Assembly (NCBI GenBank): GCA_039182715.1
Contig: JBCDBY010000076.1
Coordinates: forward strand, 1-16,034
Direction of reading: 5' to 3'
Origin: Planctomycetota bacterium
GTDB lineage: Bacteria; Planctomycetota; PLA2
DNA: 16,034 bases
Shown: piece after piece, positions 2,193-13,360 of the stretch
How the letters are laid out: each line of letters begins with the position of its first letter
Position numbering within the stretch: position 1 is the stretch's first letter
Notes under the pieces: generated by a model
What the model saw: the letters and a program-made list of their open reading frames with translations, nothing else
Database searches by the model: none
What the model was told of the DNA's origin: nothing
Program-made: the position numbers and the translations under genes

Positions 2193-3131
2193 GTGCTGTG
2201 GGTCATCGTCAATCGGGGAAACCGAACGCCGTTGCGACGCATGCGCGCGTTTCGGGGCGGCGCGTTCGCGCGTCGCGTGCGACCGCTTCCGTTGGAGTCG
2301 ATTCGCCGCCGCCGGCGCCTGCCCGCGGGCGGCTACCTCTTCGTCGGTCACGAGACCTGGTCGTCGTCCGACCTGGCGCTCGGGGCCCGGCTCGCGCGCC
2401 GCATGCGGGAGGAAGGTGCGCCGGTCTGGAACGATCCGGGGCACGTGCTGCGCCGCTACGCGTTGCTGCGCATGCTGTTCGAGGACGGCACGAATTCGTT
2501 CAACGTCTACCGTGCCGACGAGCGGCGCGAGCCGACCCGGTGGCCGGTCTTCCTGCGCGGCGAACACGACCATCAGGGGCATCGCAGCGAGTTGCTGCCG
2601 GATCGGGCCGCCCTCGCCGCGGCGCTGCGCGAGGTCGAGGATCCGGCGAGCGCATTGATCGTCGAGTTCGTCGACACGCGCGGCGGCGACCGGCTCCACT
2701 CGAAGTGCGGCGCCTGCCGCGTCGGCGACGCGCTCTTCGCGCGCCACCGGATCTTCGGCGAGCACTGGATGGTCAAGGTGCAGGCCCACCCCGAGCCCGC
2801 GTGCGCGGAACGGGAACGGTCCTACGTGGCCTCGTTTCCCGATCGCGAGGCGGTCGCCTCCGTGTTCGAGCGGGCCGGCATCGACTACGGCCGCATCGAC
2901 TACACGCCGGTGGGGGATCGCATCGAGGTGTGGGAGATCAATACGAACCCGACGATCGTCGATCCGCCCACGCTCGCCATGAAGAGCCGCTGGGCCTTCA
3001 ACGAGCCGATCATCCACCGCCACTGCGATGCGCTGCTGGCGCTCGCCGAAACGGGCGAGGGCCGGAGCCCGGTGCCTTTGAAGGGCGTCGCGGGCGTTCG
3101 GCCGGGTTGGCGGTGGTGGGGGAAGCGTTGA
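2193..3131 (+). CDS. hypothetical protein with ATP-grasp-like motifs (TupA-like/sugar-transfer-associated ATP-grasp type)
   Basis: 312 aa from a GTG start. Motifs IVEFVDTRGGDRLHSKCGACRVGDALFARH and DYGRIDYTPVGDRIEVWEINTNPT resemble the central K/R and C-terminal E-x-N Mg-binding segments of ATP-grasp enzymes. Start codon uncertain; an alternative ATG lies at 2241. Confidence 0.55.
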   Translation: MLWVIVNRGNRTPLRRMRAFRGGAFARRVRPLPLESIRRRRRLPAGGYLFVGHETWSSSDLALGARLARRMREEGAPVWNDPGHVLRRYALLRMLFEDGTNSFNVYRADERREPTRWPVFLRGEHDHQGHRSELLPDRAALAAALREVEDPASALIVEFVDTRGGDRLHSKCGACRVGDALFARHRIFGEHWMVKVQAHPEPACAERERSYVASFPDREAVASVFERAGIDYGRIDYTPVGDRIEVWEINTNPTIVDPPTLAMKSRWAFNEPIIHRHCDALLALAETGEGRSPVPLKGVAGVRPGWRWWGKR

Positions 3132-3272
3132 ACGTTGAACGTTCGACGTTCAACGTTCGGGGTGGGAAGTCATCGGAGGTTTGGGTGGCTTGCACCGTGC
3201 CATCCAGGTTTTCGGCGGCTCCGATGACTTCCCGCGTTGAACGTCCCACGTCACACGTCGAACGTTCCACAT
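3122..3272. repeat. Heptamer-arm palindromic element, copy A
   Basis: Left arm 3129-3156 is TGAACGT TGAACGT TCGACGT TCAACGT, with the first unit containing the TGA stop of the upstream gene. The core is a perfect 15-bp inverted repeat, GGGAAGTCATCGGAG (3164-3178) and CTCCGATGACTTCCC (3219-3233), around a 40-nt loop. Right arm 3239-3266 is GAACGTC CCACGTC ACACGTC GAACGTT. It fills the whole gap between convergent stops (3131 and 3277). Confidence 0.7.
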
Positions 3273-3276
3273 TTCC

Positions 3277-4866
3277 CTAGGCCGCTTCCGGCTTCGGGTC
3301 GTCGTCCTTCTTCTTCTCGTTCCCGTCGTCGGCGCCCTTGAGCTTGCCGAAGTACTCCGGCATCTCGACGCCGCCGACGTCGCGCATCATCTGGAGCATG
3401 GGCGGCAGGGTGCCGCCGAGCCCGCGCAGGAAGTTCGCGGTGGCGTTGGAGCCGTTGCCGTCGCTGCCGCCGTCCCAGACGACGACCTTGTCGAACTTGA
3501 TGTTGCTGATCGCCTGCGCCGCGGTCTCCGACAGGTGGTCGAGGTGCTCGAGCATGAGCATCTGGAACGCCGCCTGCGCATCGCCGCACGCACTCACGAT
3601 CTCGGCGAAACCCTGACCCTTCTTCTGCAGGATCTCGAACTGGCCGCGCGCCTCCGCCTCGAGCCGGGCGTAGATCGCGGCCGCCTCGCCCTCCGCCTCG
3701 ATGCGGCGCTTGTCCGCCTCCGCCTCGGCGTCGACGACCATCTTCGCCTTCTCGGCGCGCGCAACCGCCTCGAGCGCGGCGCGCTGCTCCGCCTCGACCT
3801 TGGTCGCCTCGGCTTCGGCCGCCGTCGCCTGCGCCTCGTACTGCGCCTTGAGCACCTCCGCCTCGGCGACGCGCTTGCGCGTCTCGCCTCGCTGGTACGC
3901 CTCGGCGCGCTCGACCTGCAGCTCGGCATTGGCGCGCGCGACAATCGCCTGCGCCTCGTTCTCACCCTTGACCGCCTGCGCGTCCGCGTCCGCCACGGCG
4001 ACGCGCTTCTCGCGCTCCGCTTCGGCGACCTTCGCTTCCGTCTGGTTGCGGGCGGTCTCCTCGCCGACGCGCGCGTCGCGGTCGAGGTTGGCGACCTGGA
4101 TGACGCGCTCCTTCTCCGCCTCCTTCGTGCCGATGTCGCGGTTCTTCTGGGCGATCGCGACGTCGATGTCCTTCTCGCGGTTGGCGCGCGCGACGCCGAT
4201 CGCGCCCGACTTCTCCTGCTCCGCCACGTCGATCTCGGCCTGCTGGATGGCGGTCGCCGCCGCCTTGCGGCCGATCGCCTCGATGTAGCCGGAGTCGTCC
4301 GTGATGTCGGTGATGTTCACGTTGATCAGCGAAAGGCCGATCTTGCGCAGCTCCGGCTCGAGGGAGTCCTGGATCGAGTTGAGGAACGCGTCGCGGTCGC
4401 GGTTGATCTCCTCGATGCGCATGGATGCGATCACCTGGCGCAGCTGGCCGAAGATGATGTCGCGCGCCTGAGCCTCGATGTCGCCGGGACGCAGGTTGAG
4501 CAGGCGCACCGCGGCGTTGTTCATCGCGCCCGGGTCGGTGCCGACGGCGACCGTGAAGACCGAGGGCACGTTCACGCGGATGTTCTCCAGCGAGAGCGCG
4601 CCCTTGAGCGGAATCTCGATCTGCAGCGGTTCGAGGTCGAGGTAGGCGTAGTCCTGGATGAGCGGCCAGACGAATGCGCCGCCGCCGTGATGGCAGCGGG
4701 CGGCGTTCTGACCGCCGACCTTTCCGTAGACGACGAGCACCTTGTTGGACGGGCATCGCTTGTAGCGCTTGATCAGCAGGATCAGGAAGCTGAAGAACAG
4801 CAGCGCGAGAACGACGACCAACAGCACCGTCGGATCGGAGAGGTTGATCGCGAACAGGGACGGCAT
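3277..4866 (-). CDS. SPFH/band-7 flotillin-like protein (FloT/YuaG-like) with long EA-rich coiled coil
   Basis: 529 aa. N-terminal membrane hairpin (VLLVVVLALLFFSFLILLI), an SPFH domain, then an extended Ala/Glu coiled-coil region. An RBS AAGGAGAAG lies upstream of the ATG. Confidence 0.8.
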   Translation of the reverse strand: MPSLFAINLSDPTVLLVVVLALLFFSFLILLIKRYKRCPSNKVLVVYGKVGGQNAARCHHGGGAFVWPLIQDYAYLDLEPLQIEIPLKGALSLENIRVNVPSVFTVAVGTDPGAMNNAAVRLLNLRPGDIEAQARDIIFGQLRQVIASMRIEEINRDRDAFLNSIQDSLEPELRKIGLSLINVNITDITDDSGYIEAIGRKAAATAIQQAEIDVAEQEKSGAIGVARANREKDIDVAIAQKNRDIGTKEAEKERVIQVANLDRDARVGEETARNQTEAKVAEAEREKRVAVADADAQAVKGENEAQAIVARANAELQVERAEAYQRGETRKRVAEAEVLKAQYEAQATAAEAEATKVEAEQRAALEAVARAEKAKMVVDAEAEADKRRIEAEGEAAAIYARLEAEARGQFEILQKKGQGFAEIVSACGDAQAAFQMLMLEHLDHLSETAAQAISNIKFDKVVVWDGGSDGNGSNATANFLRGLGGTLPPMLQMMRDVGGVEMPEYFGKLKGADDGNEKKKDDDPKPEAA

Positions 4867-4872
4867 TTCTAT

Positions 4873-4881
4873 CTTCTCCTT
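4873..4881 (-). promoter_or_regulatory. Shine-Dalgarno for the flotillin gene (AAGGAGAAG on the minus strand)
   Basis: The reverse complement of cttctcctt is AAGGAGAAG, about 7-10 nt upstream of the ATG at 4866. It lies in the 26-bp nfeD-flotillin spacer. Confidence 0.4.
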
Positions 4882-4892
4882 CGTGGTTTGTT

Positions 4893-5453
4893 TCAGATGG
4901 CGATGACGTCGAGGGTCTGGTCGCCCTCGACCGACACGACGCGGATGCGCGCGCCGGACGGGATCTCGTCACCGTCGGTGCGCGCCGGGAACTCGAGCGA
5001 GCGCCCCTGGATCTCGATGGTCACCTTGCCCAGCCCCTCGTGCGCGCCGGGGATGCGCAGATAGCAGGTGCCGCTCTTGCCGACCGCGTTCTCGATGCGG
5101 ACGGTGCCGCTCGACTGCAGGTTGGCGAGCCCGCGCATGAGCAGGCCGACGGCGAACATGCCGGCGACACCGGACCCGGTCGCCACCGCGAGTCGTACGG
5201 GCATGGCGGGCGAGCGCTCCATCATGATGAGGCCGACCAGACCGAAGATCGCGGCGAAGGCGCAGAGCGCCTTGAACGAAAGCACGCCGAAGAAGACGTT
5301 GCCGTGGCCGACGGGATCGCCGTCGGTGTCGAGTTCCGGCCCGTCCATGTCGATGTCCGCTTCGCCGAACAGTCCCAGCGTCTGCAGGACGACCTGCACG
5401 AGCACGAGCACGCCGCCGCCGACGGCGCAGATGGTGTAGAGATTGGCTTCCAC
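4893..5453 (-). CDS. NfeD-family membrane protein (YuaF/YqiJ-like), partner of SPFH proteins
   Basis: 186 aa from a GTG start, with GAGGGAG 7 nt upstream. N-terminal TM segments plus a C-terminal OB-fold-like soluble part. Sits immediately upstream and co-directional with the flotillin gene, the classic nfeD-SPFH operon. Confidence 0.7.
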   Translation of the reverse strand: MEANLYTICAVGGGVLVLVQVVLQTLGLFGEADIDMDGPELDTDGDPVGHGNVFFGVLSFKALCAFAAIFGLVGLIMMERSPAMPVRLAVATGSGVAGMFAVGLLMRGLANLQSSGTVRIENAVGKSGTCYLRIPGAHEGLGKVTIEIQGRSLEFPARTDGDEIPSGARIRVVSVEGDQTLDVIAI

Positions 5454-5566
5454 TTCGTCTCCCTCACGTAATCGGTAACCTTTACTTCCGACAAACCGGC
5501 TCTATTCGCGGCTTTCCCCGCGCTTTTCCGCGCGCCCCGGCAAAGCGGGTATAAAGGTCTCACCGA
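5454..5566. promoter_or_regulatory. divergent promoter region between nfeD-flotillin operon and Kelch lipoprotein gene
   Basis: 113-bp gap between divergent start codons. It contains the AT-richer stretch ggtaacctttacttccgacaaa and a TATAAA hexamer (GGGTATAAAGG) about 13 bp upstream of the GTG at 5567. Confidence 0.35.
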
Positions 5567-7051
5567 GTGAGAGGACATGGCGGGGCGTTTCTCATCGCCC
5601 TCCTCGTCGCGTGCGGCGGCGGAGGTGGCGGAGGCGGTACGCCGTTTCGGGTGACGGGTTCGTCGCCGGAGACGGGCACCACCGAAGCGGACATCGACGT
5701 GCCGGTTCTGATCGTCTTCAATCGGCCGGCCGACGTCGCCACGCTCAACCAGGAGACGGTCCGCCTCGAGACGGCCGACGGTGTCCCGGTCGGCGCGCGG
5801 ATCCTCGTGCAGGGATTCAACTCCGCGGCGGTCAACGTCGAGCCGTTCGCGAATCTCGACGAGAACGTCGGCTATCGCGTCGTCCTCAGCGGGGTCCGCG
5901 CGACGGACGGCACCGCGCTGGCGACGCAGACCGTCTGTTTCGTGACGCGCAGCAGCACGCCGACGGTCCGGCCCGACCAGCTGCTCGATCTCGGCGACGC
6001 CCTGCAGGTTCCGCGCTTCCGCGGCGTCTCGATCCGGATGCGCGACGGCCGGACCGCGGTCATCGGCGGCTACTCCGACCCGCAGACCGCGACCGACACG
6101 ATCGAGATCTACGAGCCCACGACGCGCGGCTTCCGGCTGCTGACCGCGCGCCTCACCGTGCCGCGCGCCGAGTTCACGGTGACGCAGCTCAACGACCGGC
6201 GCATCGTCATCGCGGGCGGCGTCTCCGAGCCCGGCGGCGCGCCGCTGGCGTCGACCGACATCTTCGACCCGGGCAGCGAGACGGTCGCGCCCGGCCCGTC
6301 GATGAACATCGCGCGCCGCGAGCATGCCGCCAGCGGATTCTTCGGCAACGATCGCCTCGTCGTCTCGGGCGGCTTCGACGCCGACGGCGAAGCGCTGGAT
6401 AGCCTGGAGGAGCTGCGGGGGACGACCTGGGAGATCATGCCTCTCACGCTGCCCGAGCCGACCGCGCAGGGCATTCAGGTCGCGTCGCTCTTCGACCGCA
6501 TCTACTTCTCCGCCAGCAACCTGCTCGGCATCAGCGGCTACATCAATGCGGCGGGGGAGATGGTCACGCGTGCGGAGGGCGACATCCGCTTCCGCCCGGC
6601 GTACGCGACGCTCTCGAACGGCGACTTCCTGATCATCGGCGGCGATACACGTTCGATGGTCACCATCGACATGTCCTCGGGTTTGCCGTGGGGCGCCAGC
6701 AGCTTCCTCCGCGAACGGCGCGGCCTGCACTCCGTGACCGTGCGCGGCAACAACGGACGGCGCCTGCTGGTCGTCGGCGGCTTCAACCGCGCCGTGCAGG
6801 GAGAGCCTCCGCTCACGTCGATGGAGATCGTCGATGCGCTCGATCCGGGCCCGTTCGGCTTCCCCGACGCGGTCGCCTATCGTGTCGACCCGCTGCGTCT
6901 GCCCGTGCCGTTCGCCGGCCACGTCGGATTTAACGACAACAGCGGCCGCACGATCATCGCCGGCGGCGTCGGCGACGGCGTCGGTCCCCACTCGCGCCGC
7001 GCGATCATGATCGTCGACAACGCGAATTCGCTCACCGTCGACTGCGATTGA
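5567..7051 (+). CDS. Kelch-repeat beta-propeller lipoprotein with N-terminal Ig-like (SbsA/Big-like) domain
   Basis: 494 aa. Signal peptide with lipobox LLVAC followed by a Gly8 linker. Repeated Kelch-like blades (AVIGGYSD, IVIAGGVSEPGG, LVVSGGFDADG, FLIIGGDT, LLVVGGFN, TIIAGGVGDG). The TGA stop lies inside the first heptamer of repeat copy B. Confidence 0.7.
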   Translation: MRGHGGAFLIALLVACGGGGGGGGTPFRVTGSSPETGTTEADIDVPVLIVFNRPADVATLNQETVRLETADGVPVGARILVQGFNSAAVNVEPFANLDENVGYRVVLSGVRATDGTALATQTVCFVTRSSTPTVRPDQLLDLGDALQVPRFRGVSIRMRDGRTAVIGGYSDPQTATDTIEIYEPTTRGFRLLTARLTVPRAEFTVTQLNDRRIVIAGGVSEPGGAPLASTDIFDPGSETVAPGPSMNIARREHAASGFFGNDRLVVSGGFDADGEALDSLEELRGTTWEIMPLTLPEPTAQGIQVASLFDRIYFSASNLLGISGYINAAGEMVTRAEGDIRFRPAYATLSNGDFLIIGGDTRSMVTIDMSSGLPWGASSFLRERRGLHSVTVRGNNGRRLLVVGGFNRAVQGEPPLTSMEIVDALDPGPFGFPDAVAYRVDPLRLPVPFAGHVGFNDNSGRTIIAGGVGDGVGPHSRRAIMIVDNANSLTVDCD

Positions 7052-7249
7052 ACGTTCGATGTTCGACGTTCGACGCTCGACGTTCGACGCTCGACGCTCG
7101 ACGCTCGACGCTCGACGCTCGACGTCAGCGATGGAGAGGCATTGAGGGTGCGGGCGAAGGGACCAAGTTGGCGCGTTCTCGTCGCCGCATCCCTCCGTCG
7201 CCTTCCTTGGTGAGACGTCAAACGTCAAACGTCGAACGTCAAACGTTCA
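7049..7249. repeat. Heptamer-arm palindromic element, copy B (expanded left arm)
   Basis: Left arm 7049-7125 is 11 tandem 7-mers: TGAACGT, TCGATGT, then TCGACGT/TCGACGC units including 5 perfect consecutive TCGACGC. GC-rich core 7126-7212 with imperfect long-range complementarity (gcgatggagagg with ccctccgtcgc, cgaaggg with ccttcc). Right arm 7213-7247 is AGACGTC AAACGTC AAACGTC GAACGTC AAACGTT. Both flanking TGA stops (7049-7051 on plus, 7247-7249 on minus) lie inside the terminal units. Confidence 0.75.
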
Positions 7250-8371
7250 CAAGTCCCGCAGCGACGGATACTTGAACCGCATCCCGTCCTGGAACCAGCG
7301 CGGGTACTCGGACCAGCGGGCGGCGACGACTTCGATGTCCTCGCGGTCCGGGTCGACCTCGAACTGGCCGGGCACGCTCGCCTCCACCAGCAGGGGTACC
7401 TTCACCCATTCGCCGCGGCGCGAGGTGATCTTCCAGGCGCGGACGTCGTCGACCTCGTCCTCGGAGACGCGACGCTCGGCGACTTCGACGCCGGTCACGA
7501 CCTGGAAGAGGTAGGTGGAGATCGCGGCGATGTCGTCGGGGAAGGCGACGAAGGGCTCGTCGAACTCGTCCGCGAAGACGAACAGTCCCTCGTGGATCTT
7601 GCCGTAGACCTCCTCGCGCGGTTCCGCCTGGAAGAGCGCGAGGTCCTCCGCCTCGAGGCACTGCGGCAGCGTCTGCCGGTCGGTGCCGGTGAGCTCGACG
7701 CGCAGGTGGTAGCGCCAGATCGTGCGCGGGTAGTCCTCGCCGACCTCCTGCGGGACGGGCAGCGGCTCCGCCGCGAGCCGCTTCTCGCTCGGCTCGCGCG
7801 TCACCGTCAGCACGCGGCGTCCCAGCCGGCGCCGCTCGACGCGTCCCAGCCAGGCGAGGTTGAGTGCATTGACGGTGAAGTGGCAGGCGACGGCGGGCCA
7901 GAGCGAGCCGCTCTCCTCGCGCAGGACGCCCAGCGCGATGCCGGCGAGAAACGCGAAGATCGGATACCCCATCAGCGCGCGCGCCGGCACCGTGTGCAGG
8001 ATGCCGAAGAGAATCGCCGTGCCCATGAGGCCGAGGTGCGGCCAGAGCGCGCCGCGGAAGAAGAGCTCCTCGGCGAACCCGGAGAGGGCGGCGAGCAGCA
8101 GCGCCTGCGGGATCGTGATCGGGCCGAGCATGCGCGCCATCAGCATCGTGGCGCGCCGTACGGGCCGGAAGATCGCGTGGCCCGCGTGGCAGAGCGCGAC
8201 AATTGCCAATCCGATTGCGATGCCCTGCAGAATCGATTTCGTCGTCGCCGCCTGGTCGCCGAGCAGCAGTTCGGTGTGCCCGAAGACGCTCGCGTAGAGC
8301 ACCGATGCGACGATCACGCCCACGTAGAACGCGCTCGCGATCCGAATCAGTCGGTTGTTGCTCGTGCCCAC
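7247..8371 (-). CDS. CPBP-family (Abi/CAAX-type) intramembrane metalloprotease fused to a C-terminal soluble domain of unknown function
   Basis: All three CPBP motifs are present: FAEELFFRG, FGILH and HFTVNAL. A roughly 200-aa acidic, non-membrane C-terminal domain follows with no motif I recognise. The longest ORF runs to 8455 but would overlap the upstream gene by 77 bp. I place the start at the in-frame GTG at 8371, just after the upstream TAA and adjacent to AGGGG; the start is uncertain. Confidence 0.65.
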   Translation of the reverse strand: MGTSNNRLIRIASAFYVGVIVASVLYASVFGHTELLLGDQAATTKSILQGIAIGLAIVALCHAGHAIFRPVRRATMLMARMLGPITIPQALLLAALSGFAEELFFRGALWPHLGLMGTAILFGILHTVPARALMGYPIFAFLAGIALGVLREESGSLWPAVACHFTVNALNLAWLGRVERRRLGRRVLTVTREPSEKRLAAEPLPVPQEVGEDYPRTIWRYHLRVELTGTDRQTLPQCLEAEDLALFQAEPREEVYGKIHEGLFVFADEFDEPFVAFPDDIAAISTYLFQVVTGVEVAERRVSEDEVDDVRAWKITSRRGEWVKVPLLVEASVPGQFEVDPDREDIEVVAARWSEYPRWFQDGMRFKYPSLRDL

Positions 8372-9356: not shown

Positions 9357-11614
9357 GCGGTCACCTCGCGTGCGGCCGCCTCGATCTCCTCTTCGGAGAC
9401 GAGCACCATGGGGGCGGTGGGGCCGAGCGGGATGAACGTGTCGGCGCTCCGCACGGACCGCAGCTTGCCGTCGTATCCGCGCTCCGCCAGTCGGGCAAGG
9501 ATCGCGTCGGCCACGCCGCCGCTCGCGCGGCACTCGTCGACGACGACGATCGCCGCGGCGGTGCTCGCCTCGCGCTCGATCGCTTCCCACGGCAGGGGGT
9601 TGAGCCACCGCAAGTCGAGGACGCGCGCGTCGAGCCCGGCGCGCCGCGCCACGCGGCGACACATGCGCACGCCGTTGGCGTAGCTGATGAAGAGCAGCTT
9701 GCCTTCGCCGTGCACGCCGGCCTCGCCCGGTAGCAGCGCTTCGCCCTGTGCCGGGTAGTCGCTCAGCCAGCCCTGGTCGCCCGGCTCGTGCAGGTCCTTC
9801 TCGTGGTACAGCGCAATCGGCTCGAGGAACGCGATGACGCGGCCGTGCTCTTTCGCCATCGTCAGGCATCCGCGCAGCATGCGCACGGCGTCCTCGCCGC
9901 GTGACGGTGTCGCGACCACCATGCCGGGAATCTCGCGCAGCGCGGCGATCGCGTTGTCGTTGTGGAAGTGGCCGCCGAACCCGCGCTGGTAGGCAAACGA
10001 GGCAATGCGCACGACCATCGGATTGGTGAACTGGCCCACCGAGAAGAACGAGAGCGAGCTCGCCTCGCCGCGCAGCTGGTCGATCGCGTTGTGCAGGTAG
10101 GCGAGGTACTGGATCTCCGGGATGGGCAGCAGGCCCGCCTGCGCCGCGCCCTGCGCCACGCCGAGAATCGTGGTCTCGTCGAGCAGCGTGTCGAAGACGC
10201 GCGCCTGGCCGAATCGCTCCTGCAGCCCGGCCGTCACGTAGTAGACGCCGCCCTTGCGGCCGACGTCTTCGCCGAAGACGACGATCTCGGGGCGGCGGAG
10301 CATCTCGTCGGCCAGCGCCGCGTTGATGTGCGCCCCGAGCGTGCGCTTGGTCGGCGCGGTCGCGGCCTCCGGCAGTCGCCCGCGCCAGAGTTCCGCGCGC
10401 GCATCCACCTCGATCGGCTCACTCGCCTTGCTTCGACAGTCCGGGTCCAAGTCGAACGACAGCGGGATCATGACCCCCTCGCGGGAGGCGAGGTGACCAC
10501 GGCCGGCGGCTTCCGGCTCGCAGGCTTCGACGCGTGTCCGCGTGGTGCGCAGGAGCGTGGCGATCGCGCCCGGCGTCGCCGCTCCGCGCTCGATCAGGAA
10601 GCGCGCATTGCGCAGCAGCGGGTCCTGGTCCTCGACCGCCTCGATCTCCGGCAGCTCTCGGTAGGTCGTCTCCACGTCGGAGCCCGCGTGGCCCCAGAGG
10701 CGCACCGTGCGGAGGTGGAGGAAGACGGGGCCTTTGGTGGCGCGGCAGGTCTCGATGGCGAGACGCGTCGTCTCCCAGATCTCGTCCAGCTCGCCGTCCG
10801 CCTCGAAGTAGCGCAGGTGCCGCAGGCCGCTGAACGCGTCGTTGATCCAGCGGCGCGGCGTGCGCACCGAGATGCCGATGCCGTTGTCCTCGCAGACGAA
10901 GAGCACCGGCACCGGGTTGCCGCGGCGATGCGCGTAGCGGGCGGCGTTGATGCCGGCCAACGCGGTGGCGTGGTTCGCGGACGCGTCTCCGAAGCTGCAG
11001 CAGACGAGCGCGTCGTGCGGGTGGTCGTGGTCGATGCCCAGTCGCCGCGCGCGCCCGAGAGCGAACGCCATCCCGACCGCCTTGGGCAGGTGGGACGCGA
11101 TCGTGCTGGTCTGCGGCGGCACGCCGAGCGGTCGGCTTCCCCAGACCTTGTGGCGGCCCTGCGCGATGGGGTCGTCGCGACTCGCGCACAGCGAAAGCAG
11201 CGTATCGAACGTCGGCGTTACCGACCCCAAGTGGCGCGACCGCGCCATCATGAACCCGCCACTGCGGTAGTGCAGCAGCGCGGGGTCCGTCACGCGCAGC
11301 TGCGTGCCGAGCACGGCGTTCTGTTCGTGGCCGGCGCTGGCGATCGTGTAGTAGCCGACGCCGCGCGCCTTGAGCCGTCGCGCCGCCATGTCGAGCTGGC
11401 GGCTCAGCACCTGGTCCTCGAAGAGCGCGCGCGCCTGCGCCGCGGTCAGGGAGCTGCCGGGCCGCACCGGTTCGTGCGAGGCCAGCAGGTGCGCGGCGGG
11501 CCGCGCGGTGGCGAGGTAGTTCTCGAGGTTCTGCTCGACGACGGTGACGCGGTCCGGGGGCACGCGGCAATTATGCCGGGTGCGTCGAACAGTCGGCCGT
11601 ATAACCGGGGGCAT
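9353..11614 (-). CDS. TPP-dependent 2-oxoacid dehydrogenase E1 component, fused alpha and beta subunits
   Basis: 753 aa. The alpha half has TPP-binding GDASANH ... VLFVCEDNGIGIS. The beta half has a transketolase-like pyrimidine-binding region, EIVVFGEDVG...ILGVAQGAAQAGLLPIPEIQY, and a C-terminal domain. The TGA stop overlaps the acyltransferase ATG. Exact start uncertain: the ATG at 11614 overlaps the divergent YtoQ ATG within GCATGC. Confidence 0.8.
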   Translation of the reverse strand: MPPVIRPTVRRTRHNCRVPPDRVTVVEQNLENYLATARPAAHLLASHEPVRPGSSLTAAQARALFEDQVLSRQLDMAARRLKARGVGYYTIASAGHEQNAVLGTQLRVTDPALLHYRSGGFMMARSRHLGSVTPTFDTLLSLCASRDDPIAQGRHKVWGSRPLGVPPQTSTIASHLPKAVGMAFALGRARRLGIDHDHPHDALVCCSFGDASANHATALAGINAARYAHRRGNPVPVLFVCEDNGIGISVRTPRRWINDAFSGLRHLRYFEADGELDEIWETTRLAIETCRATKGPVFLHLRTVRLWGHAGSDVETTYRELPEIEAVEDQDPLLRNARFLIERGAATPGAIATLLRTTRTRVEACEPEAAGRGHLASREGVMIPLSFDLDPDCRSKASEPIEVDARAELWRGRLPEAATAPTKRTLGAHINAALADEMLRRPEIVVFGEDVGRKGGVYYVTAGLQERFGQARVFDTLLDETTILGVAQGAAQAGLLPIPEIQYLAYLHNAIDQLRGEASSLSFFSVGQFTNPMVVRIASFAYQRGFGGHFHNDNAIAALREIPGMVVATPSRGEDAVRMLRGCLTMAKEHGRVIAFLEPIALYHEKDLHEPGDQGWLSDYPAQGEALLPGEAGVHGEGKLLFISYANGVRMCRRVARRAGLDARVLDLRWLNPLPWEAIEREASTAAAIVVVDECRASGGVADAILARLAERGYDGKLRSVRSADTFIPLGPTAPMVLVSEEEIEAAAREVTA

Positions 11615-12056
11615 GCAGTGGCACGTCTACCTCTCCGGCGAGATCCACACCGACTGGCGCGATCGCATCGCGGAGGGCATTCGCGCCCGCGATCTGCCGG
11701 TCGTCCTGAGCGCGCCCGTGACCGACCATCCCGCCAGCGACGACTGTGGCGTGTCGATTCTTGGCGCGGAGGAGAAGGGCTTCTGGAAGGACAACAAGGG
11801 CGCCGGGGTCAACGCGATCCGCACGCGCACCCTGATCGAGAAGGCGGACGTCGTCGTCGTCCGATTCGGCGACAAGTACCGCCAGTGGAACGCCGCCTTC
11901 GACGCCGGCTACGCGTCGGCGCTCGGCAAGTCGATCATCACGCTGCACGGCGAGGAACTCACGCACGCCCTCAAGGAGGTCGACCGCTCGGCGCTTGCCG
12001 TCGCCTCGGAGCCGGAGCAGGTGGTGGACATCCTCGAGTACGTCATCCGGAAGTAG
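11613..12056 (+). CDS. YtoQ-family protein (nucleoside 2-deoxyribosyltransferase-like fold)
   Basis: 148 aa. MQWHVYLSGEIHTDWR ... VVVVRFGDKYRQWNAAFDAGYA matches my memory of the Bacillus YtoQ family, including size. The upstream in-frame GTG at 11544 would overlap the E1 gene and was not used. Confidence 0.6.
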   Translation: MQWHVYLSGEIHTDWRDRIAEGIRARDLPVVLSAPVTDHPASDDCGVSILGAEEKGFWKDNKGAGVNAIRTRTLIEKADVVVVRFGDKYRQWNAAFDAGYASALGKSIITLHGEELTHALKEVDRSALAVASEPEQVVDILEYVIRK

Positions 12057-12061
12057 GTGCG

Positions 12062-12201
12062 TGGGACGTTCGACGTTCGACGTTGGACGTTCGCGGCAGG
12101 AAGTCGGGCGGAGGGCTTCCTGGTTCTGGAACCCCGCGACCGGGGACGACTTCCGATCGCAGCCGAAAGTACGTCGAACGTCCAACGTCCAACGTGCGAA
12201 G
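12062..12201. repeat. Heptamer-arm palindromic element, copy C
   Basis: Left arm 12062-12096 is tGGGACGT TCGACGT TCGACGT TGGACGT TCGcgg. The core 12097-12168 carries nested inverted repeats: caggaag with cttcctg, ggttc with gaacc, ccccg with cgggg, and GGAAGTCG (12100-12107) with CGACTTCC (12147-12154). Right arm 12169-12196 is GTACGTC GAACGTC CAACGTC CAACGTG. It fills the gap between convergent stops (12056 and 12202). Confidence 0.7.
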
Positions 12202-12660
12202 TCAGGCCTCGGTGCCTTCGAAACTCCTCAGCCGGTGCATGTGCCCCATCAGCGAGGCGGTGCCGGCCATGCCGAGCCAGGCGAAGAAGTTCATGTTGCC
12301 GGAGAGGATCAGGCAGCCGGTGGCGATGATCGGATAGCTGATGCTTCCTGCTCTCGCCCGTGCGGCGACGACGCCGGTGATCGCGCCGCACGCGGCGGCC
12401 CAGACGAAGATCACGGGGCTGCGGAAGATCCCGAAGATGTGAATGAAGACGAAGCAGGCGACCATCTCGAAGACGAAGACCTTGTACGTGTAGTTCCGCC
12501 GCTCCGCGCGCTCGGAGCCCTGGCCCTCCTCCCGCCGCCACGCCTCGCGCATCTCCTCCTGTACGTGCGCCGGGAGCCCCTGGAAGAACTCGTTCTCCTC
12601 CCGCGGATCGTGGATCCGGTCCTCGGGGATCTCGTGCAGCGCCTTCTCCATGCATTCCAT
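12202..12660 (-). CDS. small two-TM membrane protein with charged N-terminal region
   Basis: The minus-strand frame is confirmed by codon-position GC: 20/20 G/C at third positions over 12241-12300, versus 10/20 for the overlapping plus-strand ORF. Start placed at the ATG at 12660 (MECMEKALHEIPEDRIHDP...). The next ATG at 12651 is equally possible. Upstream of 12660 the codon bias becomes ambiguous, so the 222-aa ORF to 12870 is not supported. Confidence 0.5.
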   Translation of the reverse strand: MECMEKALHEIPEDRIHDPREENEFFQGLPAHVQEEMREAWRREEGQGSERAERRNYTYKVFVFEMVACFVFIHIFGIFRSPVIFVWAAACGAITGVVAARARAGSISYPIIATGCLILSGNMNFFAWLGMAGTASLMGHMHRLRSFEGTEA

Positions 12661-12690
12661 ATCGGCATCCGGACGGCCGATAAGAAACCC

Positions 12691-13128
12691 GTGGATGAAC
12701 GGGTCGAACAGCTCCGGCAGGAGTGGCTCGCCGAACAGGCGCGCCGCGACGTCGCGGACGGGAAGCGGCAGCAGCGCAACCGCCGCAACGCCGTGCTCGC
12801 TGGGGCGATGATCGGCATCGTCTCGACGATGGTCACCGCGCAGGTGACGCGCCGCGCGATCTTCTGGCACTCGTTCCTGCTCGAGGCGCTCTTCGGCGCG
12901 ATCGCCGGCTACGTGCTCGTCCGCCGCGGCGCCGACCCGCTCAACGGCGTCGTCTGCTTCAGCGTCGCCTACTTCGCCGCCTGGCTGCTCCGCGCGCTCG
13001 GCCTCGACCCGTCCGTGCTCTTCGCCGCCGGCGACCTGCGCGGCGCGCTGATGATCCAGGGCAACTTCACGAGTCTCTGTCTCACCGTGGCCTGCGGCGC
13101 CGCGGTGGGGCAGGTCATGCGGGATTAG
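12691..13128 (+). CDS. small multi-TM membrane protein
   Basis: The plus-strand frame has 20/20 G/C at third positions over 12961-13020, and a hydrophobic C-terminus (AIFWHSFLLEALFGAIAGYVLV...VVCFSVAYFAAWLL). Start tentatively the GTG at 12691. An alternative ATG at 12808 is preceded by GGGG. The 5' part of the 377-aa ORF from 11995 is antisense to real genes and to repeat C and was rejected. Confidence 0.45.
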   Translation: MDERVEQLRQEWLAEQARRDVADGKRQQRNRRNAVLAGAMIGIVSTMVTAQVTRRAIFWHSFLLEALFGAIAGYVLVRRGADPLNGVVCFSVAYFAAWLLRALGLDPSVLFAAGDLRGALMIQGNFTSLCLTVACGAAVGQVMRD

Positions 13129-13360
13129 GCGGGGCCAGGAGCGAGGGGCCAGGGGCAGCGAGTGTCTTGTTGCCCACCTTCATTCACGAGTGCGCGCAGA
13201 CGCCCGTCGCTGCGCCACGCGGTCGCACTCCCGTCCACCGAAAGCTCTCCGCGAACTCCGCGGATCCTCCGCGCTCTCCGCGCTTAAACCCGACCGCAGC
13301 CGGAGGCCAACGACTCCGGCCCAGCAATCCGAGGCTGAGGGAGTCCTCCTCGCCCGCGAC

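Follow-up and report, generated by a model that had tools for sequence, protein, structure and literature searches.

Inverted Heptamer Arrays Fill a Convergent Gene Junction in a Planctomycetota Contig

Two Heptamer Arms Between Convergent Stop Codons

An excess of heptamer repeats in the intergenic DNA of bacteria has long been known, both from the short tandemly repeated repetitive (STRR) sequences of cyanobacteria and from a genome survey of 2007, yet the origin and function of these repeats are unexplained. Here, we describe such repeats in a stretch of 16,034 bp from a Planctomycetota bacterium, referred to below as the window, which is an entire contig (JBCDBY010000076.1) of a metagenome-assembled genome (MAG). 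Its genes were mapped by an analysis of GC content at third codon positions (GC3) together with Pfam. The element in question, copy B of three hairpins named A, B, and C, lies between two convergent genes. To its left, a kelch/Big_5 gene (5567-7051, plus strand) encodes 494 aa and ends in a TGA stop at 7049-7051; residue C16, an N-terminal Cys, is nearly invariant among homologues of the protein, which fits a lipoprotein. To its right, a gene for an Rce1-like (CPBP) protein with a C-terminal extension (7247-8371, minus strand) ends in a stop at 7247-7249. Its open reading frame (ORF) extends to 8455, and comparison with a 377-aa orthologue in a syntenic contig from the Joint Genome Institute (JGI), L002, makes the GTG at 8371 its likely start.

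Copy B consists of two arms and a core. The left arm (7049-7125, plus strand) is built of 11 head-to-tail heptamers of the family ACGTTSR, seen here in the phase TCGACGY. Cut into 7-mers from 7049, its units read TGAACGT, TCGATGT, TCGACGT, TCGACGC, TCGACGT, then TCGACGC five times in succession, and finally TCGACGT. The perfect block of five TCGACGC units (7084-7118, plus strand) lies within a perfectly periodic tract of 41 nt (7084-7124), and this variant is private to the left arm, without a mirror image in the right. The right arm (7215-7249, plus strand) has five heptamers, ACGTCAA, ACGTCAA, ACGTCGA, ACGTCAA, and ACGTTCA, which are the reverse complement of the left-arm family. Between the arms is a private core of 89 nt (7126-7214), not of 87 nt as a preliminary description made from the letters of the window had it; its own fold is that of an imperfect hairpin, with z -2.1 for the plus and -2.5 for the minus strand. 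Tandem Repeats Finder (TRF) reports a period of 7 with 10.6 copies and 91% matches at 7052-7125 and a period of 7 with 4.6 copies at 7215-7246, both arrays having 91-92% matches. The arm of 11 units including the fivefold block and the arm of five units, which that description had counted, are therefore borne out by direct reading and by TRF alike.

The two arrays share one unit family, lie close together, and run on opposite strands, and as such form an inverted pair: positions 7049-7083 and 7215-7249 are 86% complementary across 35 nt, with 131 nt between them. With a unit of 7 nt, at least three head-to-tail copies, and a place outside coding sequence, copy B is also an intergenic heptamer simple sequence repeat (SSR), which overlaps coding sequence in the stop codons of both genes only. 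Chance does not account for this repeat, as the pattern ACGYTSR in 2.7 copies occurs 12 times in the window as opposed to 0.00 times expected from 200 shuffles that preserve dinucleotides. The unit ACGTTCG contains no G-tract, and in this respect it has no potential to form a G-quadruplex.

As first described, the arms are asymmetric and no spacer separates the element from either stop codon. The TGA at 7049-7051 lies inside the first left-arm unit, TGAACGT, and the last triplet of the right arm, TCA, is the stop on the minus strand. The preliminary description took these stops as embedded in the repeat; they are indeed the outermost triplets of the terminal units, but both are located at the stop positions of the orthologues (protein ends ..VDCD* and ..LRDL*). 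Because of this, they are native stops with which the terminal units coincide, and not stops supplied by the element. As the two convergent TGA codons are mutually complementary, they add three base pairs to the stem. The array sits 3' of both genes, where a change in the number of interior units shifts neither a reading frame nor the spacing of a promoter, and the expectation that gain or loss of units would spare both proteins holds, since the interior units are outside both ORFs. A phase-variable contingency locus was considered as well and ruled out, the SSR being neither within an ORF nor in a promoter.

Assembly Support for the Unit Count

A tandem run of identical units raises the question of whether their number was collapsed or expanded in assembly. 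When the kelch protein was looked up by exact match, the sole result was an independent Logan unitig of the same organism, from run SRR22824305 and built at k=31, which agrees with the window from 4723 to 7113 save for one synonymous single nucleotide polymorphism (SNP) and ends inside the TCGACGC run. This end within the run is what would be expected of an artefact. However, the 31-mers of the window that recur are those at 7084-7094 only, and none recur at k=41. Since the repeated 31-mers are confined to the TCGACGC run, the break of the unitig is a k-mer effect and no sign of misassembly. Unitig and contig agree up to the break, the left arm of 77 nt is below read length, and the genes on either side are complete and in syntenic order. 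Taken together, an artefactual unit count is highly improbable. The SNP is a T/G difference at 6442 in the kelch gene between the unitig and the MAG contig, and the sample may hold more than one haplotype. The same look-up with the Rce1-like protein, in versions with two alternative starts, found no exact match on record, and the nearest homologue of the kelch gene in a protein search is 59% identical; these searches turned up no closely related strain.

Such elements have consequences for annotation as they break assemblies made at short k and create spurious ORFs that read through them. Two of these are found in the window, at 5222-7228 (minus strand, 668 aa) and 9962-12337 (plus strand, 791 aa), where they pass through copies B and C because the heptamer arms are free of stop codons in several frames.

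Three Hairpins of One Unit Family

Copies A and C share the architecture of copy B, and each of the three takes up the entire space between the stop codons of two convergent genes. Copy A (3120-3277) has four to five units per arm around a strongly palindromic private core, which forms a hairpin by itself (z about -6). It lies between a gene at 2193-3131 (plus strand), whose TGA stop falls within the first unit, and a Band_7 gene at 3277-4866 (minus strand). Copy C (12057-12200) has four units per arm and is placed between a YtoQ-like gene (11544-12056, plus strand) and a gene ending at 12202 (minus strand); its core alone is not a hairpin in the fold test. On the plus strand, all three run from (ACGTTSR)n through a G-rich inner stem, a loop, and a C-rich inner stem to the complementary array. 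Therefore, each adjoining gene has (ACGUUSR)n in the sense direction 0-9 nt past its stop.

Folding supports long hairpins at all three sites. Copy B forms a single long hairpin on either strand, at -104 kcal/mol (z -3.3) for the plus strand and -116.4 kcal/mol (z -5.9) for the minus strand, and also folds as single-stranded DNA (z -3.5). The values for the plus and minus strands are -92.8 and -81.4 kcal/mol for copy A (z -8.7 and -7.3) and -76.8 and -73.4 kcal/mol for copy C (z -4.0 and -5.3). Searches for known elements returned nothing comparable: Rfam gave no match over the whole window at E<=1, ARAGORN found no tRNA or tmRNA genes in it, and a scan for consensus terminators and promoters was without a match at copy B, where neither strand has a U-tract after the hairpin as an intrinsic terminator would.

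Hairpins with ACGTTSR arms are present in three of the five convergent spacers of the window and in none of the tandem or divergent ones. The fourth convergent spacer, of 13 nt, has no repeat element, and the fifth (13129-13360, 232 nt) has other short arrays without ACGT arms, namely a GGGGCCA-like heptamer in 3.7 copies at 13131-13156 and the 9-mer GCTCTCCGC in 4.3 copies at 13244-13284. Upstream of this spacer, a plus-strand gene at 12700-13128 (GC of the three codon positions 0.72/0.48/0.96) shares its DNA with the upstream portion of the long minus-strand ORF at 12202-12870. By comparison with the 162-aa version in L002, the real gene within that ORF probably starts near 12690.

Gain of the Hairpins and the Case for Mobility

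The relatives of the window suggest when the hairpins arose. Contig L002 has a gene order common to most of the window (DinB_2 domain protein, fatty-acid desaturase, hypothetical, Band_7, NfeD-like, kelch, Rce1-like, hypothetical, E1 dehydrogenase, and YtoQ-like), and its spacers at the sites of A, B, and C measure 9, 33, and 6 bp, none with an ACGTTSR hairpin. The C-termini of all six flanking genes align with those of L002 to the last residue or two. Since the spacers of L002 are short and the C-termini aligned, the three hairpins are gains in the lineage of the window that left coding sequence undisturbed.

Three copies with one arm family and one polarity within 16 kb, all missing from a syntenic relative, could also be taken as a non-autonomous mobile element such as a miniature inverted-repeat transposable element (MITE), a REPIN (a doublet of repetitive extragenic palindromic, REP, sequences), or a foldback-like element. 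The arrays would then be terminal inverted repeats carrying multiple transposase sites, inserted at three convergent junctions where they do no harm. The architecture does recall the foldback elements of eukaryotes, and the left ends of A and C are 81% identical over 47 nt, GGAAGTC included. However, the cores speak against this. Local alignment of the three cores in pairs against 500 shuffles gave no significant similarity (p 0.06-0.73), and the stretch common to the cores of A and C is GGAAGTC..CGGAG beside the arm only. The claim that the cores are modular thus stands insofar as no two are significantly alike, while the common A/C core on which it had partly been based does not exist beyond this stretch. 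Nor are the window cores convincingly like those of elements in other genomes, where the best result is one short match between C and L082 (z 5.5 in about 90 tests of short sequences) that we do not rely on. The junction motif of A and C, searched as the pattern ACGTTSRACGTTCGSGGNNGGAAGTC, has 0 matches in JGI metagenomes. Furthermore, no consistent target-site duplication is evident at the boundaries of A, B, and C as a MITE would leave, Pfam detects no transposase or REP-associated tyrosine transposase (RAYT) gene within the 16-kb window, and the three copies share the heptamer family alone and not a conserved REP/REPIN palindrome of 20-40 nt with a head motif.

Other relatives provide a further argument against mobility. 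Among 18 loci with kelch orthologues, those that retain a convergent Rce1-like neighbour have a hypervariable spacer between the two genes, of 10 to about 240 bp; its content is not conserved, and none of these orthologous spacers has arms of the ACGT type. Instead, the relatives bear equivalent structures made of other heptamers. In L128, an inverted pair (GTTTCCG)n/(GAAACGG)n with 16 nt between the arrays (4084-4174) is found directly upstream of the Rce1-like start, with the architecture of copy B but another unit and position. In L136, a long stem, GACGAACTACCTGCGCC / GGCGCAGGTAGTTC, lies downstream of the kelch orthologue (804-1085), and AGTTCCG in 5.7 copies is arrayed on one side only, an asymmetry of the arms that resembles that of copy B. 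Further heptamer arrays are found as well, as with GCTTCAC in 3.3 copies at another convergent junction of L003, or the perfect GCGACTG in 3.1 copies, without an inverted partner, in the 33-bp kelch/Rce1 spacer of L002 (9924-9945). Equal architecture with different heptamers argues for a general local process, and together with the features of the cores it makes a mobile element an unlikely explanation of the window hairpins.

Arrays of the Unit Family in Other Phyla

The preliminary description had proposed to look for the arm motifs elsewhere with other cores. A scan of a collection of species-representative genomes with ACGYTSR in 3.7 copies returned at least 120 stretches (L005-L124), which were assigned to groups by their record titles; the counts in this section are among the matches listed. 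They include 43 loci in Verrucomicrobiota, 4 in Planctomycetota, and 7 in other members of the Planctomycetes-Verrucomicrobia-Chlamydiae (PVC) group, which brings PVC to 54 of the 120. The others are in Proteobacteria (22), Bacteroidota/Rhodothermota (14), Acidobacteriota (10), Chloroflexota (7), Gemmatimonadota (3), and further groups (10). About 20 ACGYTSR arrays have an inverted partner within 400 nt, with which they form long hairpins in both arm orders, and the cores enclosed are unrelated. Carriers of paired arrays include several Verrucomicrobia and Planctomycetes.

Often these arrays adjoin arrays of other heptamers. Composite gapless arrays of several heptamers (e.g., CGTCCTG, ACGTTCA, and GCGGTCA) were observed in L011 (1106-1184), L014 (4334-4399), L019 (704-796), and L009 (6276-6410), and in L009, from Microcoleus, the unit ACGTTGG is mixed with STRR-like GACAACT units. 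One array in Alcanivorax xiamenensis has about 50 perfect ACGCTGG units (L029 5046-5393), and those of L101 and L102 (Limnohabitans) have 11-20 units.

Orthologous arrays could be compared in the two pairs of loci that align. Between L005 (1150-1480) and L068 (860-1210), whose flanks are 78% identical, each arm is retained at 5-6 units, and the core differs by an indel of 40 nt and is not alignable. Between L024 (3300-3900) and L065 (6200-6900), with flanks 77% identical, two arrays of five units each are kept in place with different unit variants. On these two comparisons, arrays of this class are persistent and not hypervariable, their unit number is roughly retained, and arms are better kept than cores. 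The microsatellite-like behaviour that the preliminary description ascribed to copy B remains putative.

This persistence bears on whether the elements do anything at all. Heptamer slippage and extension of palindromes could accumulate in unselected spacers as a neutral by-product without function. Such an origin is suggested by the variable length and content of the kelch/Rce1 spacer among relatives and by the restriction of the elements to junctions where both neighbours end, which are the least constrained kind of spacer. In the literature cited in PMC4692102, heptamers are described as over-represented among bacterial SSRs, chiefly in intergenic regions, and a bias of polymerase slippage for units of 7 nt is proposed (Mrazek et al., 2007). 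In contrast, neutral arrays would not be expected to persist at orthologous positions with arms kept better than cores, and in Xanthomonas the heptamer repeats retain their gene context in 83% of cases (Rehm et al., 2015, PMC4692102). A neutral by-product is therefore possible, but we hold it to be the less probable outcome.

The arrays were further placed relative to genes by means of ORFs filtered on higher GC content at the first than at the second codon position, which gives rough gene calls and observations made post hoc. Two other ways of calling genes had been dropped: greedy calling of the longest ORF misclassified even the copies of the window, because arrays are without stop codons in some frames, and calling by G-C phase failed on known genes. 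There is no overall polarity of the arrays with respect to genes (38/39/34/32). However, an ACGTTSR array ends 9-12 nt before a start codon in the sense direction at about 14 loci as opposed to 1-2 in antisense, and no Shine-Dalgarno-like sequence lies between array and start codon in those loci. Paired elements between genes of the same direction have one constant order in 7 of 8 cases (L031, L063, L100, L064, L068, L107, and L099, with L085 as the exception): stop, (YSAACGT)n, private core, (ACGTTSR)n, about 9-16 nt (214 nt in L099), and start. Their intercistronic place resembles that of REP sequences and bacterial interspersed mosaic elements (BIME).

These regularities could mean that the heptads are binding sites for a protein on double-stranded DNA or on RNA and that the hairpin is incidental. 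The models would be the omega repressor of pSM19035, which binds heptads of 7 bp co-operatively, and the cold-shock proteins, which bind one heptamer each and are among the candidate binders discussed for heptamer repeats (PMC4679880). One unit family at three loci of the window and in many phyla, arms that outlast cores between orthologous loci, the excess of arrays before sense starts, and the constant arm order would all agree with such a role. Nevertheless, no protein is known as a candidate binder, the crude placement of arrays relative to genes gives no overall polarity, and the many other heptamers beside ACGTTSR in the same loci point to a process independent of the unit sequence. Protein-binding heptads are consequently very doubtful.

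A broader version of the same idea would see in the ACGTTSR heptads an undescribed cis-element that crosses phyla, is enriched in PVC, has a fixed polarity toward genes, and is read by a conserved nucleic-acid-binding factor, with the hairpins of the window as gene-end tags placed back to back. The polarity would entail two arrangements, a sense-strand array directly after stops or 9-12 nt before starts, and, in pairs, the order of stop, complementary arm, private core, ACGTTSR arm, and start. As a whole, this idea is quite unlikely. If it were true that the array sequence is the functional unit, this could help explain the preference of bacteria for repeats of 7 nt.

Growth and Possible Role of Copy B

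On balance, we give somewhat better than even credence to copy B being a heptanucleotide simple-sequence palindrome, with arms that change by slippage and a REP-like function as a 3' stem-loop for both transcripts. Its arms would grow and shrink via slipped-strand mispairing, and the left arm, judged from this single sequence, would recently have gained about four to five copies of the variant TCGACGC. Because the fivefold block is absent from the right arm and stands within a more heterogeneous array, one-sided expansion by slippage is its simplest explanation. The five identical variant units, with C at unit position 7 and unmirrored on the right, look as the slippage signature proposed in the preliminary description would be expected to look. 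Template switching across the hairpin would copy changes from arm to arm and extend the stem outward until sequence under coding constraint is reached, where extension would halt. Outward growth of this kind would account for the absence of a spacer at either stop.

As for a role, both convergent mRNAs would have their 3' ends in the element. The long stem-loop would then act in the manner of REP/BIME, hindering 3' exonucleases and/or read-through toward the opposing gene, and it is possibly a target of RNase III. By this analogy, a REP-like role for both transcripts is probable. With no U-tract, copy B is not a canonical intrinsic terminator.

Several points weigh against this account. Slippage at copy B is deduced from one sequence, and neither strand offers a U-tract or a hit in the terminator scan in support of a role at transcript ends. 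The asymmetry of G-U versus A-C pairs favours the minus strand in B, the plus strand in A, and neither in C, and there is no consistent strand signature of selection on one RNA. Moreover, one unit family at three unlinked spacers is unexplained by independent local slippage. A shared family needs either copying between loci, by a mobile or conversion process, or a sequence-specific factor, and the better conservation of arms than of cores could point to a role of the arm sequence in its own right, beyond that of the structure.

Whichever process is at work, the locus is a clean case from a little-studied phylum. Three palindromes have their stems built from one unit family around private cores, the ends fall exactly at stop codons, and one arm shows what appears to be a fresh one-sided expansion. 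It thus offers a concrete system in which to study slippage, template switching, and the function of RNA at 3' ends.

Comparison With Known Repeat Systems

The elements of the window can be set beside several families of bacterial repeats. REP/BIME sequences and REPINs of Enterobacteria and Pseudomonas are likewise extragenic imperfect palindromes located at gene 3' ends or between cistrons, and REPINs are inverted doublets. REP/BIME elements are transcribed into stem-loops and stabilise the upstream mRNA. Unlike these, the window elements are without a head of the GTAG type, their stems are made of tandem heptamers, and their cores are not common to the copies. Bidirectional intrinsic terminators also serve two convergent transcripts with one symmetric hairpin, but the hairpins of the window have no flanking A/U tracts and their stems, at 35-60 bp, are far longer.

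Modular arms of variable repeat number are known from elsewhere. In the foldback elements of eukaryotes, the arms consist of short tandem repeats and differ in length, and the loops vary; the BOX elements of pneumococci contain a variable number of boxB modules. The window elements are alike in their variable-number repeat arms and long hairpins. They differ in unit size and host, and there is no evidence of mobility for them.

Closer still are the tandem heptamers of other bacteria. The cyanobacterial STRR and the TAACTGA repeats, the latter found in Beggiatoaceae, Cyanobacteria, and Bacteroidetes, are lineage-specific intergenic arrays that occur in distant phyla, sometimes overlap stop codons, and, as with copies A, B, and C, are absent from close relatives with an equal gene neighbourhood (PMC4679880). 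However, most of these are single arrays in direct orientation placed shortly before start codons, whereas the elements of the window form inverted pairs at 3' ends.

The nearest likeness is to the GGGAATC repeats of Xanthomonas, and to the GGGGAYT repeats of Nostoc, which have units of 7 nt in about 3-14 head-to-tail copies (PMC4692102). A Xanthomonas genome has about 185 GGGAATC arrays, of which 70-75 are inverted pairs capable of forming a stem-loop (Rehm et al., 2015, PMC4692102). As in the window, these are intergenic arrays of a GC-rich genome, often with two arrays convergent on each other. Most are transcribed, their place is near the 3' end of the ORF upstream, and as a class they keep their position while their length varies between related species (PMC4692102). 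In contrast, the unit ACGTTSR is not G-rich and has no potential for G-quadruplexes, the host phylum is Planctomycetota, and the pair in the window encloses a private, partly palindromic core and exactly fills a convergent stop-to-stop spacer. No earlier description of ACGTTSR arrays was found in the literature searched. Copy B had first been treated as a local curiosity, but it belongs to this described class of intergenic heptamers, inverted pairs included (PMC4692102), and is a fresh example of a known, unexplained class rather than a novel kind of system. Across these lineages, the comparison suggests that what recurs is the hairpin at gene ends and the periodicity of 7 nt, while the sequence of the unit is specific to the lineage.

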